NCBI GenBank assembly: GCA_965242965.1
Contig: OZ251518.1
Span: 3,513,838 to 3,577,837 of the forward strand
DNA length: 64,000 nt
Source of the DNA: Candidatus Poribacteria bacterium
GTDB taxonomy: Bacteria > Poribacteria > WGA-4E > WGA-3G
Direction: 5' to 3'
The position numbers and the translations under genes were made by a program. Numbering within the stretch: the first letter of the stretch is position 1; the number at the start of each line of letters is the position of its first letter. The notes under the pieces were generated by a model, which was not told where the DNA came from, did not search any database, and saw only the letters and a list, made by a program, of their open reading frames with translations. Positions 32,701 through 43,470 of this stretch are shown here, in pieces.

Positions 32701-33018
32701 TTAGCCGACAGCTGCATTAGAAAAACTCGGGGACTTTCCATAGACGACTTCATCAGTCAGTGCGGCGAGATCTACTGACACCGTTTCCCACACACCATCG
32801 GCGTAATCGGGATTATTTTTATGGAAAGCGATGTTTTTGGGAGTAGGGATGGGCTCACTGTCAAGCAATAAGCCTTCAAGATAACATTCAATGGCTTCGA
32901 CAGCTTGCGTCTGCGCATCCTTGACCGTTTCCCCGGAAGTGAAGCACCCTGGTAAATCAGGCACTGTCACTCCATAGTCACTGCCCGGGTCTTTGTGGAG
33001 AACAATGGAATAACGCAT
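32701..33018 (-). CDS. hicB: HicB-family antitoxin
   Basis: MRYSIVLHKDPGSDYGVTVPDLPGCFTSGETVKDAQTQAVEAIECYLEGLLLDSEPIP matches the HicB N-terminal domain consensus. Confidence 0.85.
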   Translation of the reverse strand: MRYSIVLHKDPGSDYGVTVPDLPGCFTSGETVKDAQTQAVEAIECYLEGLLLDSEPIPTPKNIAFHKNNPDYADGVWETVSVDLAALTDEVVYGKSPSFSNAAVG

Positions 33019-33084: not shown

Positions 33085-33202
33085 TTCCGGCGGCGACTTA
33101 CTTTCCCACGGGGTTGCCCCCGCAGTATCATCAGCGCAGAAGGGCTTAACGGCCGTGTTCGGGATGGGAACGGGTGGTGCCCCTTCGCTATAGCCACCGG
33201 AA
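33085..33202 (-). rRNA. rrf: 5S ribosomal RNA
   Basis: Minus strand TCCGGTGGCTATAGCGAAGGGGCACCACCCGTTCCCATCCCGAACACGGCCGTTAAGCCCTTCTGCGCTGATGATACTGCGGGGGCAACCCCGTGGGAAAGTAAGTCGCCGCCGGAAAACC; ends approximate within ~3 nt. Confidence 0.9.
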
Positions 33203-33292
33203 AGGTGTTTTGTCATATATTGTATTGACAAGAAAATTTGACAATTGCATAGATTAGGTGAGGGTGTCGGTAGAAGAAATAATAAAGAAGTT

Positions 33293-36283
<2,991 letters not shown>

Positions 36284-36378
36284 ATAAGGTGATATTATTA
36301 TTCTACCGATTTACCCTCTCTATGCAATTGTCAAAGAACCCCGCCTTGCACAGGAGCGGGCGCTCCCTTACAAGACGA

Positions 36379-36451
36379 TGGAGATGAGCGGAGTTGAACC
36401 GCTGACCTTCTGGTTGCAAACCAGATGCTCTCCCAACTGAGCTACACCCCC
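36379..36451 (-). tRNA. tRNA-Ala (anticodon TGC)
   Basis: GGGGGTGTAGCTCAGTTGGGAGAGCATCTGGTTTGCAACCAGAAGGTCAGCGGTTCAACTCCGCTCATCTCCA; G3:U70 Ala identity pair present; CCA not encoded. Confidence 0.9.
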
Positions 36452-36469
36452 AAGTGGCATTACTCTTTA

Positions 36470-36901
36470 AGTATACCACAAAAAAACGCATTTGTCAAAT
36501 TTATTTTTCAAAAAAACGGATTTGCTGACACAAACCCTCGCGATGGTATATAGTATACCACGAAAACTGCGCAATGTCAAATTAAAATCAAATTAAAATG
36601 ACAATTTCGTCATCGTTGAGGTTAATTATACCACAAAAAAGATGCAATGTCAAATTAAAATGACGATTTCTGCGAATTTCTGCTGAATTACGCCACAAAA
36701 AGTGCGCGATGTCAAATTAAAACGACAATTTCGTCATCGTTGAGGTTAATTATACCACAAAAATGACGCAATGTCAAATTAAAATGACATTTTCTGCGGA
36801 ATTCTTGTTAATTCTGCCCCAAAAAGTGCGCGATGTCAAATTAAAACGACAATTTCGTCATCGTTGAGGTTAATTATACCACAAAAATGACGCAATGTCA
36901 A
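36470..36901 (-). promoter_or_regulatory. array of seven tandem sigma70-consensus promoters directed at tRNA-Ala/23S/5S
   Basis: Plus-strand coordinates of -35 (TGTCAA) and -10 (complement of the -10 hexamer), spacer exactly 17 in every case. P1: 36493-98 / 36470-75 (TATACT). P2: 36575-80 / 36552-57 (TATACT). P3: 36648-53 / 36625-30 (TATAAT). P4: 36710-15 / 36687-92 (CGTAAT). P5: 36772-77 / 36749-54 (TATAAT). P6: 36834-39 / 36811-16 (CAGAAT). P7: 36896-901 / 36873-78 (TATAAT). AT-rich UP-like TTTTAATT precedes each -35. Underlying ~125-bp tandem DNA repeats. Confidence 0.75.
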
Positions 36902-36903
36902 AT

Positions 36904-38859
36904 TTATTTAAAAAAAGTGCTCGTATCCCACAGCAGAATGGTGCCATCGAAACTGCCGCTCGCCAAAAGCGCGCCATCCGGCGAAAAGGCAAGAGACTGA
37001 ATGTCAGTGGAATGTCCCCAGAAAGTGGCGATGTTCTCACCCGTTGCAACCTCCCAGAATCTGATGGACATCTTATCCGTGCCTTGCCACGCTGCCCCCG
37101 ATACGAGATACCTGCCACATGGCGAAAATGTCAACGCCTCCGGTCTTTGGCATCCTTGCGGCAGGCATATCACCATGAGCGTTTCATACCTTTTCGCGTC
37201 CCATAGCCAAATTTCCCGGAAAATTCCACCGGCAATCACGTTCCCGCATGGCGAAAATACAACAGTCTTTGGAACAGCATTGTATTCTATCCGTTTAAGT
37301 GCGCGTTGAATTTGACGCGCATCGCCTTTATATTTCTCTAAATCTTTGGGACGGTGAGTGGACAGTTCCGTGATGAGCCGCCAATCGTCAACATCCCAAA
37401 GGAACGCTTTCGTATAGGGAGACGCGACAGCGAGGGACTTTCCATCAGGCGAAAAAGCGATGTGCCAAATCCAATCCGATTTTCCGTTCAGCGTCTGTAG
37501 CGCGGTTCCGTTTTGTAAATCCCACTCTATCAGGCCGCCGCCACCATCTGCGCTCACTAATCGTTCCTCTGTTGGAGAGAACGCGACAGCATAAATCGGT
37601 TTTTCCTGATGTCCCGTTAACTTCGCAATCGGCGCGTCGGGTTTCTCAACGTCCCACACCCTGACTATGCCATCGTAGGCACTGGCGGCGAGTTTGTTTC
37701 CACACGGCGAAAAACTGATTGAACGGATTGTCATCGGTTCTTCTGCGAAAACGACTTGCGGTTCTCGCCGCGCAACATCCCAAAAGATTATGTCTCCTAT
37801 CCAATGGCCGGCAGCCAACTTTTTTCCATCTGGGGAGAATTTGACGCAGCCACAGACATAGGGATGCTTCCGAATAAGGGCTTCGTGCGGCGTGGCCTCG
37901 CCGATATTCCACACCTGAATTGTGCGAGGACCGGCGATGGCCACGTGCGACTCTGTGGTTTGCGAAAAATGCGTGGCATGCGAAATTTCGCGCAGCTCTT
38001 TATGTTCCAACGCCGCTAATTTTTTGTTGCGTTCCATATCCCACACAATGAGCGTGGTGCCGCTGACCTCGGATGCGAGCAAAGTTCCCTTTGACGAATA
38101 AGCGAATCTCTTCCGGCCATTTGTCGAGGAGACGGTTGAAGGTTCTCCGGTTTCCGCGAGTCGGTTGACATCCCACTTCCGCAGCGTGCCCTCTCTGTCC
38201 GCTGTCGTCAGGAAAGTCCCGCACGGCGAGAAGAGCAGTGTTGTTACCGATGCCGTATGTCCGGTGAGACAAGCGATGCGTTCACCCGCTGTCAGATTCC
38301 AGACAGAAAAGGTGTTTTCAGCTGTCGCGCATGCGAGCAGAACGCCGTCCGGAGAAAAGGCGATGGGAATCCTCGGAAGAGGCCCCTTTTTAGGGGTATC
38401 GTCAACGGGGAATTCCGCAAGCGGTTCTCCGGTTTCGGCGTGCCAGACGTAAACAGTATCGTAGCGGCCCCCGGAACACGCTAAGCGTTGTCCGTCGGCT
38501 GAAAAGGCGAGCCGAGATACCTTATTCGCCTGTTTCCGGGTTCGTTCCATTTTGGCGATGCGTTGTTGGCTTGGCATATCCCAGACGCTCACGCCACCGT
38601 CCACATTGCCGGTAGCAAGCAAATGCCCGTTCGGCGAAAATGTCACCGCAGAAACCCCGCGTTCGGTATCCCATAACGCGAACGGTTCCATCGTGGACAC
38701 CTCGTAGAGCCAGAGCCCGATACCACTTCCGACGGCGAGAGTGTTCCTGTCTGGAGAGAATGCCAGTGCCCGCACCAACCCTCTGCCCAATCGTGCAATC
38801 GCGCCATCGGGGAGAATCCATGTGGTAATATCGCTATTTGCGCGATGCTGATTTTCCAC
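36904..38859 (-). CDS. WD40-repeat beta-propeller protein
   Basis: At least 12 WD40 repeats (e.g. GHSTDIQSLAFSPDGALLASGSFDGTILLWD). The start is uncertain: GTG at 38859 is preceded by GGAGG 6 nt upstream and avoids overlap with the LamG gene; the ATG-start ORF extends to 39075 but overlaps the upstream gene by 59-197 nt. Confidence 0.7.
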   Translation of the reverse strand: MENQHRANSDITTWILPDGAIARLGRGLVRALAFSPDRNTLAVGSGIGLWLYEVSTMEPFALWDTERGVSAVTFSPNGHLLATGNVDGGVSVWDMPSQQRIAKMERTRKQANKVSRLAFSADGQRLACSGGRYDTVYVWHAETGEPLAEFPVDDTPKKGPLPRIPIAFSPDGVLLACATAENTFSVWNLTAGERIACLTGHTASVTTLLFSPCGTFLTTADREGTLRKWDVNRLAETGEPSTVSSTNGRKRFAYSSKGTLLASEVSGTTLIVWDMERNKKLAALEHKELREISHATHFSQTTESHVAIAGPRTIQVWNIGEATPHEALIRKHPYVCGCVKFSPDGKKLAAGHWIGDIIFWDVARREPQVVFAEEPMTIRSISFSPCGNKLAASAYDGIVRVWDVEKPDAPIAKLTGHQEKPIYAVAFSPTEERLVSADGGGGLIEWDLQNGTALQTLNGKSDWIWHIAFSPDGKSLAVASPYTKAFLWDVDDWRLITELSTHRPKDLEKYKGDARQIQRALKRIEYNAVPKTVVFSPCGNVIAGGIFREIWLWDAKRYETLMVICLPQGCQRPEALTFSPCGRYLVSGAAWQGTDKMSIRFWEVATGENIATFWGHSTDIQSLAFSPDGALLASGSFDGTILLWDTSTFFK

Positions 38860-38878
38860 GCGCGCCCTCCGCGTTTGT

Positions 38879-39712
38879 TTACGGGGTATACCCGCGTTTG
38901 ACGTTTGCCCAAGTGGTTGCGAGTTTGTCAACCGCATCGACAGCAAAAGTGCCAGAGATGTTTTGGAGCACCTCTGCCTCGGTGAGTGCCTTATCATAAG
39001 CGCGGACGATGGCGAATGAACCGTTGAAAGTCCGCCGCCGTTCGTCGAAGGAATTCGCACCGATGGAGATGTCATTTATCGGTAACGCCTTGTCAAACTC
39101 AAAACCGGCTTGGCTGCTGACTTCTTCGCCATCTTGATATGCGACAATCGACTTGTCGTTAGTGCCGACAATCGTAAGCCAGGTCCACACGCCTTCCTCA
39201 AGTTTGAGGTTAAGCGGTTGAACGCCCTGTTTCGCACCTTGCGCATGGACAGAGATGTCCAAGTTTTGCCCGTTGACTATCCACAGCCGAATTCCCTGTT
39301 TCCCTTCCCGCGGGCTGTTTTGGAACCCGGCGAAGTGGTGTTCCTCCACAAAGAAATCGCCGTTGCGTCGGCAAAGGAACTCAAGCGTCCAGTCCTCAAA
39401 AAAGAGAGGCGGATTTTTTGCCGGCGGACCGCCGAAGGTTTGATGGGAATCCTTGGTTGTGTAATACTTCGCGTTCGGCAAGTCGATGCCGAGTGCAGGG
39501 ATTTTGATTGGCCCTTCCTCAAGTTCGGGTGCTTCGTCCGCGGCGGGTAATTCGCCTTCAGCCGTGCCGAGGTTTGTCCACGCGTCTTTGTGGCCTGGAT
39601 TATCAGCGGCATCGAGGTAAAGCACCGGGTCTGGAACGATATTAGCATTTGCGATGTTGCACGCGAGGGATAGGCAAAGTATCGTCGTGCAAAGTGAAAT
39701 AAGTGTTCTCAT
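38879..39712 (-). CDS. secreted LamG/concanavalin-A-like lectin-fold protein
   Basis: Signal peptide MRTLISLCTTILCLSLACNIANA; jelly-roll signature ...FNGSFAIVRAYDKALTEAEV. Confidence 0.6.
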   Translation of the reverse strand: MRTLISLCTTILCLSLACNIANANIVPDPVLYLDAADNPGHKDAWTNLGTAEGELPAADEAPELEEGPIKIPALGIDLPNAKYYTTKDSHQTFGGPPAKNPPLFFEDWTLEFLCRRNGDFFVEEHHFAGFQNSPREGKQGIRLWIVNGQNLDISVHAQGAKQGVQPLNLKLEEGVWTWLTIVGTNDKSIVAYQDGEEVSSQAGFEFDKALPINDISIGANSFDERRRTFNGSFAIVRAYDKALTEAEVLQNISGTFAVDAVDKLATTWANVKRGYTP

Positions 39713-39812
39713 TTGAGTCTTCCTCCTAGGGTTTGGAAAATAGATATGCCTCCGTTTCTGCTTGAAAACTATTATAACAGCATTTCAACATTTATTCAAG
39801 AGATAAAATAAG

Positions 39813-40560
39813 GGAATTTCATATTTCGATGTCTTTTTGGTAGGAGAGACCTCCCGGTCTCAATTTGTCCGTAGCGCGGGGGCCTGTCCCCCGCGATCGC
39901 AGCATGGCGAGGGACAGGCCCTCGCCCTACGGTGCGGGGGGTGGCGTTTTCGCGATCGCTGCATGGCCTACGATGAAGGGGGGAGGCGTTTTTTTTTCGT
40001 ATCGCGGGGGGGCTCGGATGCCAGACGCGCATCCGGGCTGGTTTCCCCCGCGAGTTCCATCGTCATGATGTGTGTTTCCCTCTCTGTAGTTTGTGATCGC
40101 CTGATCACAAACAGGTTAGGATCAGGCAATCCTGACCTACAGGGCCTGGCGCGAGAACGATGACGAGGGCCTGTCCCTCGCCATCGTTCGCGCTGCGGAA
40201 AAACCGTCTCTTGTTCTCTTCAGGTCCGTAGGACCTGAATGTCTATAGCAGCCGATACGCAAAATGCTCTAAGGGCCTTTAGGTCCTTAATAGCTTTTGC
40301 CAGGGCCGCGTGTTTTCTTATTAAGGACCTAAAGGACCTTGACAACGGTACGACACGTTTTTCTATAGACATGTAGGTCCTAACGGACCTAAAACGCCAC
40401 CTTGTGACGATGGAACAACGCGGGGGACAGGCCCCCGCGCTCCGGTAAAAAACGCCATCCCCTCACCGTAGGGCGGGGGCCTGTCCCTCGCCATCGTCCG
40501 CGCAATCCAATCCTCGCGGGGGACAGGCCCCGCGCTACGGATGCATCGAGACCAGGAGGT
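39813..40560. repeat. repeat island inside the 16S-23S insertion (E-like, A, B x3, D, B, C, B x2, A)
   Basis: Seen directly; ORFs 39837..40163, 39865..40068 and 40363..40803 (N-terminal part) are artefacts. Confidence 0.9.
40197..40397. repeat. C element copy 4
   Basis: AAAAACCGTCTCTTGTTCTCTTCAGGTCCGTAGGACCTGAATGTCTATAGCAG...TATTAAGGACCTAAAGGACCTTGACAAC...TATAGACATGTAGGTCCTAACGGACCTAAAACGCCAC. Confidence 0.85.
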
Positions 40561-40669
40561 CTCTCCTACCGGGATGCATGGATACCCGGCGCGCCTACCG
40601 GCAATTCCCCGTTTTTTGACTGTAGCTGAAGAAAACGCAATCGAAATCAGCAGCCATTGTGCATGTCTC

Positions 40670-40840
40670 CTAGCGAGTGTTTTCTGTAACGGCCGAGGGA
40701 TGTGGGCAGGTAACTTGCCCGGGTCTGTAATCACAATAACCTCTCCACCGGCATCCCTTCGTAACTGTTTGAGTCTTTTGACACCGGCTTCGTTCTGAGG
40801 CAACGATGAGAACCAGGAGAAAAACGATAAAGGCTTTCAT
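40670..40840 (-). CDS. possible small secreted Cys-containing peptide (56 aa)
   Basis: MKAFIVFLLVLIVASERSRCQKTQTVTKGCRWRGYCDYRPGQVTCPHPSAVTENTR; GGAG 8 nt upstream of the ATG. Below the 60-aa ORF-track cutoff; lies between a repeat island and tRNA-Ile. Confidence 0.3.
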   Translation of the reverse strand: MKAFIVFLLVLIVASERSRCQKTQTVTKGCRWRGYCDYRPGQVTCPHPSAVTENTR

Positions 40841-40988
40841 AAAACACTCCTTTTAAGAGCGACGGGCCATCGGGCAATTTGAAAAAACGAGGGGACAACG
40901 AGTAGGAAAGAAGGTATCCGTTCAGAAAACAACGACGATTTGAAAAGGGACCTTCCTTGAAAACCGCGCGATGTCAGTTTGATGTTGA

Positions 40989-41062
40989 TGGGCTTATCTG
41001 GAGTCGAACCAGAGACCTCGCGCTTATCAGGCGCGCGCTCTAACCGTCTGAGCTATAAGCCC
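40989..41062 (-). tRNA. tRNA-Ile (anticodon GAT)
   Basis: GGGCTTATAGCTCAGACGGTTAGAGCGCGCGCCTGATAAGCGCGAGGTCTCTGGTTCGACTCCAGATAAGCCCA; perfect 7-bp acceptor stem. Confidence 0.92.
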
Positions 41063-41160: not shown

Positions 41161-42712
<1,552 letters not shown>

Positions 42713-42868
42713 CCACAAAAGTATTGAAGCACATCTCAAACGCAGGTAAGTGGAAAATCATACCCACGTCTTAATTGAGGTGCACTCACAAGCTATAAAA
42801 TAGGCACGTCACGTTCACTATTTAACTTTCAAAGAACAACTTCACCTTTCGTTGAAAGGTTATCTTTA

Positions 42869-42897
42869 ATTATACCCAATAAAAATCCGTTTGTCAA
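42869..42897 (-). promoter_or_regulatory. consensus sigma70 promoter for 16S rRNA (TTGACA-N17-TATAAT)
   Basis: Minus strand TTGACAAACGGATTTTTATTGGGTATAAT (-35 = 42892-42897, -10 = 42869-42874, plus coordinates), ~150 nt upstream of the 16S 5' end. A-tract inverted repeats AAAAAGACCTTTTTTTT / AAAAAAAAGGTCTTTTTTTT lie upstream at 42935-42988. Confidence 0.75.
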
Positions 42898-43189: not shown

Positions 43190-43470
43190 GTCCGGCGAGG
43201 GCCTGTCCCTCTCCCTACTTTTGGAAATCGCGCATCCGCGAAAAACGTCTCTTCAGGTCCTTTAGGTCCTGCATGTCTATAGTAGCCCCGACGAAAAAAA
43301 CACTAAGGTCCTTTAGGTCCTTAATATATAGCAGACGTAACCGATGAGAAGCATTAAGGACCTAAAGGACCTTGAAGAAGCGGGTGCCTGCGCGTGCTAT
43401 AGACATTCAGGTCCTACGGACCTAAAGAGCGCGCCTTTTCATCAAGTAGGCATCTTCCCTGAAAGACTCC
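43190..43470. repeat. repeat island with C element copy 5 (43241..43433)
   Basis: A half-B repeat (GGCGAGGGCCTGTCCCTC) then AAAAACGTCTCTTCAGGTCCTTTAGGTCCTGCATGTCTATAGTAG...CATTAAGGACCTAAAGGACCTTGAAGAAG...TATAGACATTCAGGTCCTACGGACCTAAAGAGCGCG. Confidence 0.85.

Follow-up and report, generated by a model that had tools for sequence, protein, structure and literature searches.

A strain-variable array of predicted sigma70-type promoters upstream of a detached tRNA-Ala-23S-5S rRNA unit in Candidatus Poribacteria

What drives a 23S rRNA gene that has parted from its 16S partner, and why should it be preceded by so many promoter-like sequences? The question is raised by a 64,000-nucleotide stretch of the genome of a Candidatus Poribacteria bacterium, a sponge symbiont (contig OZ251518.1, positions 3,513,838 to 3,577,837; hereafter the window), in which seven TTGACA-N17 units lie on the minus strand at 36901..36470, directly upstream of a tRNA-Ala-23S-5S unit. 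A previous, sequence-only reading of this DNA had described them as seven perfect consensus promoters and had suggested that repeat amplification compensates for the uncoupling of the 23S from the 16S promoter. We find five of the seven to be credible promoters, a conclusion strongly supported by comparison with relatives, and we consider it probable, at roughly 0.7, that the array is a functional multi-promoter driver (sigma70-type, extended -10) of tRNA-Ala-23S-5S.

Anatomy of the predicted promoter array

Reading of the minus strand and a scan of 36200..37200 placed the TTGACA hexamers at 36901, 36839, 36777, 36715, 36653, 36580 and 36498. The hexamer is exact and the spacer is 17 bp in all seven units, with -10 hexamers that read, in order, TATAAT, CAGAAT, TATAAT, CGTAAT, TATAAT, TATACT and TATACT, all as the sequence-only reading had listed them. 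Its spacing of 45-80 nt gives way to measured intervals of 62, 62, 62, 62, 73 and 82 bp. The units and the repeat that carries most of them are as follows:

36873..36901, minus strand: unit 1 (A type), TTGACA-N17-TATAAT with TGG, preceded by a long A/T tract overlapping the stop codon of WD40
36811..36839, minus strand: unit 2 (B type), TTGACA-N17-CAGAAT with GGG in place of TGG
36749..36777, minus strand: unit 3 (A type), TTGACA-N17-TATAAT with TGG
36687..36715, minus strand: unit 4 (B type), TTGACA-N17-CGTAAT, lacking A-11
36625..36653, minus strand: unit 5 (A type), TTGACA-N17-TATAAT with TGG
36552..36580, minus strand: unit 6 (P6), TTGACA-N17-TATACT with TGG, 73 bp past unit 5
36470..36498, minus strand: unit 7 (P7, proximal), TTGACA-N17-TATACT with TGG, preceded by 20 nt of A/T-rich sequence
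36588-36904: tandem repeat found by Tandem Repeats Finder, 62-bp units paired into a 124-bp A+B dimer (2.6 copies, 93% matches)

Three units match the consensus at 12/12 positions and two at 11/12, and these five share an extended -10 element, TGG directly before the -10 hexamer, which was absent from the earlier account. The same five pass a -10 test (nearness to TATAAT, with A-11 and T-7) that unit 4 fails and that unit 2 passes only weakly. T-12 is missing from both B units and, in CGTAAT, so is the key A-11; unit 2 is probably a weak or dead promoter and unit 4 probably a dead one. The description of seven perfect promoters is therefore an overstatement, with five near-perfect units and decayed -10 boxes in the two B units.

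The repeats had been put at ~125 bp, which agrees with the 124-bp dimer, while the base unit is 62 bp. Each dimer joins an A unit, consisting of a perfect promoter followed by TAACCTCAACGATGACGAAA, to a B unit that is ~70% identical to it and has a broken -10. P6 and P7 are further units, more diverged than the A/B repeat, and the 73-bp interval between units 5 and 6 is explained by an 11-nt local duplication (Tandem Repeats Finder, 36577-36599). A/T-rich tracts resembling UP elements, previously assigned to every unit, reach their full 16-20 nt at units 1 and 7, as they do at the 16S promoter, and shrink to TTTTAAT (7 nt) with mixed sequence further upstream at units 2-6. The tract of unit 1 falls within the 3' end of the WD40 open reading frame (ORF). 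From P7, transcription is predicted to start 7-8 nt past the -10, about 11 nt before the 5' end of tRNA-Ala, close to the ~12 nt proposed before.

Such an accumulation is not a product of chance. The pattern TTGACA-N14-TGN-TATAMT has five matches in the 64-kb window, all of them in the array and all on the rRNA strand, and none in 100 dinucleotide-preserving shuffles of the window. Separately, an opposite-facing promoter-like site, CTGACA-18-TATAGT on the plus strand at window 36525-36554, overlaps a hairpin in the P6/P7 interval; this site is probably a chance occurrence.

Conservation footprint and relatives

Comparison of relatives whose 23S genes are 92-99% identical showed that only the -35, the TGG and the -10 are invariant across the intact unit types. 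Among 28 distinct A, P6 and P7 unit sequences, only AATTTGACA and GTGGTATA[A/C]T are unchanged in all three types, and ~12 of the 14 remaining spacer columns vary; in the upstream A units, the hexamers and TGG stay invariant while the spacers diverge. The B units behave otherwise, with a -10 that differs between strains (CGTAAT, CAGAAT, CGAATT, TAAATT) and a TATAAT that is still intact in 2 of 11 distinct sequences. When seven proximal promoters were aligned with two 16S promoters, only TTGACA and GTATA.T remained invariant in the promoter region.

One further segment is constant. The 20-mer TAACCTCAACGATGACGAAA forms the first 20 nt past every A-unit -10 and is invariant in 13/13 distinct A sequences:

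36605-36624, 36729-36748 and 36853-36872, minus strand: the three copies of the 20-mer TAACCTCAACGATGACGAAA

It has no copy outside these arrays, either elsewhere in the window or among the other Poribacteria loci fetched, and an origin of the array as a dispersed repeat or miniature inverted-repeat transposable element (MITE) was ruled out by this confinement. The 20-mer also starts a frame-preserved six-codon ORF (ATG ACG AAA ... TAA) without a Shine-Dalgarno sequence. A clustered regularly interspaced short palindromic repeats (CRISPR) array and iterons were likewise ruled out, the units abutting without unique spacers and no rep or cas genes lying nearby. A conserved RNA structure in the inter-promoter segments was rejected as well, with fold z-scores of -0.55 and -1.34 and small stems that differ between the window and L002, and a DnaA-box reading of TGTGGTATAA was dropped after inspection by eye gave three mismatches or an insertion with respect to TGTGGATAA.

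The search of related genomes for the repeat, which the sequence-only reading had proposed, located it in close relatives (L001, L145, L147, L002 and L160). A contig from the European Nucleotide Archive (L001) holds seven units with few single-nucleotide polymorphisms (SNPs), and two short-read scaffolds from other samples (L145 and L147) also hold seven. The GTDB species representative (L002), with a 16S 98% identical to that of the window, has six units, with the relic of another one upstream of an inserted gene for a solute-binding protein, and L160 has five, so copy number varies (5, 6, 7 units) among close relatives. Unit-specific SNPs tell the array copies apart in the spanning assemblies. 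In L002 and L163, intact promoters stand 62 bp apart.

Further rearrangements were seen around the same genes. Between tRNA-Ala and 23S, L002 (12535-12810), L178 (10300-10330) and L179 (10265-10295) carry an extra promoter copy and/or a degenerate partial copy of tRNA-Ala, and L002 also carries TTGACATTTTGACATTTTGACA there, which suggests that modules of promoter plus tRNA may have been duplicated as a block. In L155, L156 and L157 (~1000-1110), which come from different samples, the 23S 3' trailer is joined to the 23S 5' leader by ~98 nt; this junction reflects either 23S genes that follow one another in tandem and lack a 5S, or a loop made in assembly through the inverted repeat of leader and trailer.

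More distant lineages were reached by recovering tRNA-Ala-23S(-5S) loci of relatives through spurious ORFs inside the 23S or across tRNA-Ala, most of the contigs being short. The divergent loci obtained in this way (L170-172, L177, L178 and L179/180) have 23S genes 92-94% identical. Promoters were counted before the 23S leader when they had an exact -35, a 16-18 bp spacer and at least 5/6 matches in the -10 including A2 and T6, with the following result:

5 promoters: window, L001, L145, L147, L002
4 promoters: L160, L170
3 promoters: L178, L179
1 promoter: L177

In the distant lineages, the promoters lie 48-128 bp apart with unrelated sequence between them, and the 62-bp repeat is absent (L170, L177, L178, L179), yet all of these promoters still share AAATAAATTTGACA ... 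TGGTATACT. A predicted promoter of its own is thus general to the Poribacteria tRNA-Ala-23S-5S unit, in keeping with the idea that uncoupling calls for one, and the 62/124-bp amplification is specific to the lineage of the window. Since other lineages make do with three or four promoters, and one with just one, the amplification to 5-7 is a lineage-specific extra that uncoupling does not require.

The genomic setting of the distant loci was also recorded. No 16S gene lies within 10 kb upstream of tRNA-Ala-23S-5S in L177-L180, where protein genes are found instead, and on the short L170 contigs the first promoter is preceded, at a distance of ~80 nt, by an apparent protein-gene 3' end at the contig edge. 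Upstream of tRNA-Ala, L177 carries a tandem set of four WD40 paralogues. In L170, ARAGORN calls a tRNA-Phe(GAA)-like gene at 279-349, between the third and fourth promoters upstream of tRNA-Ala. The first 35 positions of L171 (1-35) are Nextera adapter sequence (GTCTCGTGGGCTCGGAGATGTGTATAAGAGACAG), a contamination in the public assembly.

The same motif is found outside the array. The 16S half of the locus has a single promoter of this kind:

42869..42897, minus strand: 16S-tRNA-Ile promoter, 12/12, TTGACA-N17-TATAAT with a long A/T-rich upstream region and TAAAGA downstream

P7 resembles it in the spacer and in the downstream TAAAGA, the two sharing TTGACAAAyG...TTTTT.TTG.GGTATAmTTAAAGA, which suggests common descent or common constraints. 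In many Poribacteria genomes, TTGACA-17-TATACT with TG is conserved ~100 nt upstream of a LamG-domain gene, and this position, together with that before 16S, points to a housekeeping promoter of the phylum. No other Poribacteria locus fetched has more than two such promoters in any 500 bp. As a control, the pattern of the 23S leader was used to scan metagenome sequence. The hits were all linked operons from outside Poribacteria (16S at most 86% identical), and in 83 of these unrelated linked rRNA operons no such promoters occur in the 1.5 kb before the 23S leader.

The split operon and the competing readings

The rRNA genes that these predicted promoters would serve are laid out in two halves on one strand:

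42719..41169, minus strand: 16S rRNA
41062..40989, minus strand: tRNA-Ile
36904..40988, minus strand: DNA between tRNA-Ile and the array (~4.1 kb), with small ORFs, REP-like palindromes, a LamG-domain gene and a WD40 gene
39712..38879, minus strand: LamG-domain gene
ending at 36904, minus strand: WD40 gene, stop codon 36906..36904
36452..36377, minus strand: tRNA-Ala(UGC), first gene of the transcription unit
36339..36314, minus strand: 23S leader GTTCTTTGACAATTGCATAGAGAGGG, boxA-like, the 5' strand of the 23S processing stem
36286..33290, minus strand: 23S rRNA
33201..33085, minus strand: 5S rRNA

The 16S end (41169) and the 23S start (36286) are 4.9 kb apart, with the LamG and WD40 ORFs between them, which bears out the uncoupling noted in the sequence-only reading. 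Brewer et al. (2020) are said to treat 16S and 23S genes as unlinked when they lie more than 1.5 kb apart. The genes of the window are split in this sense, their gap being 4.9 kb with non-rRNA genes inside.

The inserted DNA has features of its own. The LamG protein has homologues ~80% identical in Candidatus Poribacteria, all 60 genome loci recovered through it belong to Poribacteria metagenome-assembled genomes, and in 58 other Poribacteria genomes (L003-L061) the orthologue, at the same ~80% identity, is distant from any rRNA gene. REP-like palindromes of the GGGACAGGCCC(C/T)CGC and AGGTCCTTTAGGTCCTTA families are dense at window 39850-40600 and 43200-43400, where they occupy intergenic DNA 3' of tRNA-Ile and upstream of the 16S promoter. 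Next to tRNA-Ile, CTGACATCGCGC (window 40966-40977, minus strand) matches the -35 and spacer start of the B unit (TTGACATCGCGC) and may be what remains of a promoter unit at the far edge of the insertion; among relatives, L145 keeps it, L001 has an altered form, and in L002 it is displaced. In L001, a near-identical strain, the stretch from tRNA-Ile to LamG is ~2.6 kb longer than in the window and includes an FtsX-domain gene and others (L001 600-4500 versus window 39712-40988), and in L002 and L160 the place of most of the WD40 gene is taken by an OpuAC-type binding-protein gene. On these comparisons, the sequence immediately upstream of the array turns over fast. On the other side, a HicB-like antitoxin ORF lies directly 3' of 5S (window 32701-33018, minus strand), and HicB or HicA/HicB genes take the same place after 5S in L145, L146, L148 and L161. 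The genes flanking the locus in the window encode sulfatase, TPR, WD40, LRR and dockerin proteins, a set in keeping with Poribacteria.

A detached tRNA-Ala-23S-5S unit would need its own promoter, and the sequences outlined above are consistent with a simple course of events. The ancestor, AAATAAATTTGACA-N17-TGGTATACT-TAAAGA, would be a promoter related to that of 16S. It would have been duplicated, and in the lineage of the window a 62-bp promoter unit would have become a 124-bp A+B dimer that was then amplified by unequal recombination or slippage. The intact copies A1, A2, A3, P6 and P7 would be left at intervals of 124, 124, 73 and 82 bp, two B copies having lost their -10 box. Unequal recombination between 62/124-bp units would account for the alleles of five, six and seven units. 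RNA polymerase would load at several sites, with all transcripts running toward tRNA-Ala; the upstream promoters being co-directional, their transcripts would add to the flow into 23S. The intervals between intact promoters might allow several polymerases to be bound at once, an argument that is not universal because L002 and L163 keep theirs 62 bp apart. We infer initiation at each site, an additive output and a selective reason for the amplification.

Downstream of the start, RNase P would trim the ~11-nt leader before tRNA-Ala. By inspection, the 23S leader GTTCTTTGACAATTGCATAGAGAGGG is boxA-like (the 16S leader has TGTTCTTTGAAAG for comparison). Its duplex with the 23S-5S spacer comes to -59.9 kcal/mol, and the same complementarity is present in L155. 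With its boxA-like element, the leader would form its own processing stem with the 23S trailer, so the tRNA-Ala-23S-5S unit would be self-sufficient for processing.

Several observations weigh against a multi-promoter driver. The single promoter of L177 indicates that five are not required, and the decay of the B units, together with a copy number of 5-7, implies that individual copies are dispensable. With one promoter for 16S and five for 23S, simple additivity would unbalance the ribosomal subunits, although occlusion may even out the two, as may the long A/T-rich stretch that precedes the 16S promoter. The discriminators (TAACCTC, ATATACC, TAAAGAG) are A/T-rich, unlike the G+C-rich ones of E. 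coli rrn P1, so regulation in the E. coli style is not to be assumed. Finally, a terminator-like element stands just before P7, where the hairpin and U7 could stop transcripts from the upstream promoters:

36510..36537, minus strand: 8-bp hairpin (-9.3 kcal/mol, three G-C pairs), then GTTTTTTT, between P6 and P7; the T-run serves also as the A/T tract upstream of P7

Taken further, this last point gives the reading in which only P7 feeds tRNA-Ala-23S-5S, the upstream copies being near-neutral products of slippage or unequal crossing-over whose transcripts end at the hairpin and U-run or are occluded. Besides the hairpin of -9.3 kcal/mol followed by GUUUUUUU, it can draw on a G-to-A change in other strains that turns a G-U pair into A-U and keeps or even improves the stem, on B-unit decay and copy-number differences between strains, and on the single promoters of L177 and of 16S. 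However, the hairpin has a z-score of only -1.0 in the window, and the U-run after it is interrupted in most strains (GTTTGTTTGG, GCTTTTTGG). L002 lacks the whole P6/hairpin segment, so that all its copies read into tRNA-Ala. The invariance of hexamers and TGG in the upstream A units despite diverging spacers, and the three or four promoters kept by diverged lineages that share nothing but promoter sequence, also argue that the upstream copies matter. We regard a P7-only supply as unlikely.

About equally doubtful, in our judgement, is a more elaborate version of the multi-promoter driver, a copy-number-variable "gain control" in which unequal recombination would tune 23S/5S output against the separate 16S, the inactivated B units and the hairpin would determine spacing and read-through, and TAACCTCAACGATGACGAAA would be a new regulatory site or leader element. 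As for compensation for uncoupling, the explanation put forward in the sequence-only reading, it is plausible for the existence of a promoter proper to the 23S half and unproven for its amplification.

Much less probable is that the repeats form a binding-site array for a regulator, a nucleoid protein or a factor of replication or partition, its likeness to the sigma70 consensus being fortuitous, or an unproductive polymerase sink. The regular 62-bp phasing, about six helical turns, would suit such an array, and promoter function does not account for the invariant A-unit 20-mer TAACCTCAACGATGACGAAA. Yet the invariant positions are exactly the -35, TGn and -10 at 17-bp spacing, every copy is oriented as the downstream rRNA genes are, L170, L178 and L179 keep several promoters without 62-bp phasing, the same motif precedes 16S and ordinary genes, and the neighbouring genes include none for replication or partition. 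That assembly expanded or collapsed a simple repeat, the doubt raised by the sequence-only reading itself, can be set aside. Many short-read contigs do end inside the array, as they do at repeats (L148-L154, L161-L169), but independent assemblies span it with SNP-distinguishable copies (the window, L001, L145 and L147 with seven units, L002 with six and L160 with five).

Comparison with known systems

Multiple promoters before rRNA genes are familiar in bacteria. In E. coli, rrn operons have the tandem promoters P1 and P2, and Streptomyces coelicolor rrnD has four promoters. Among mycobacteria, the rrnA operon of M. chelonae has five (PMC10218544) and that of M. fortuitum four (PMC2443159), and the upstream copies of tandem rrn promoters are thought to be partly occluded (PMC10218544). 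The array has in common with the tandem promoters of E. coli, Mycobacterium and Streptomyces that predicted housekeeping-sigma promoters are co-oriented within a few hundred bp and that their number varies among relatives. It differs in preceding tRNA-Ala-23S-5S, not 16S, and in lying on a near-identical 62/124-bp repeat whose copy number is strain-variable. In contrast to the P1/P2 types, its intact copies, known here from sequence alone, are nearly identical full-consensus extended -10 promoters with A/T-rich discriminators.

Unlinked rRNA operons with separately promoted 23S-5S genes occur in Thermus, Rickettsia/Wolbachia, Planctomycetes and Helicobacter, and bacteria that grow slowly or live as symbionts commonly have their rRNA genes unlinked. 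To our knowledge, the balance between the two halves of unlinked rRNA genes is poorly documented. The survey of Brewer et al. (2020), in the form in which it is cited in PMC7534041, describes unlinked rRNA genes as widespread, and a reference within PMC3761228 covers those of Wolbachia. The window shares with these operons the protein-coding DNA between 16S and 23S and a 23S-5S unit with its own putative promoter and processing stem. Its 16S-tRNA-Ile half, however, is only 4.9 kb upstream on the same strand, so that the operon counts as split and not as dispersed; each half holds one of the spacer tRNAs, and the 23S half has a multi-copy array, not one promoter.

Promoters duplicated within repeats have precedents elsewhere. 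Multiple repeat-borne promoters upstream of the Halobacterium rRNA operon were reportedly described by Dennis in 1985 and by Chant and Dennis in 1986. A 133-bp indel distinguishes the rRNA promoter region of H. salinarum R1 from that of NRC-1/91-R6 (PMC7002104). Halobacterium and the spacer-promoter repeats of eukaryotic rDNA thus resemble the array in having promoters duplicated within tandem repeats of strain-variable number, whereas they use different machinery and precede the whole operon, not a detached 23S half.

Our literature search found no paper on Poribacteria rRNA promoters, and the locus offers a first sequence-level view of what would be the housekeeping promoter of Poribacteria. 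Within one uncultured phylum there is a natural series in which a detached 23S-5S unit has one, three, four or five predicted promoters against a single one for 16S, and in one lineage the number is still shifting between strains by tandem-repeat dynamics. The series could serve as a testable model for the evolution of promoter dosage after rRNA uncoupling, and the array is predicted to supply very strong, compact natural promoter cassettes. Multi-promoter control of rRNA being long known, no new mechanism is revealed; what appears new is the combination of a detached 23S half, near-identical full-consensus promoters, a young tandem repeat, a strain-variable copy number and a series graded 1, 3, 4, 5 in one phylum.

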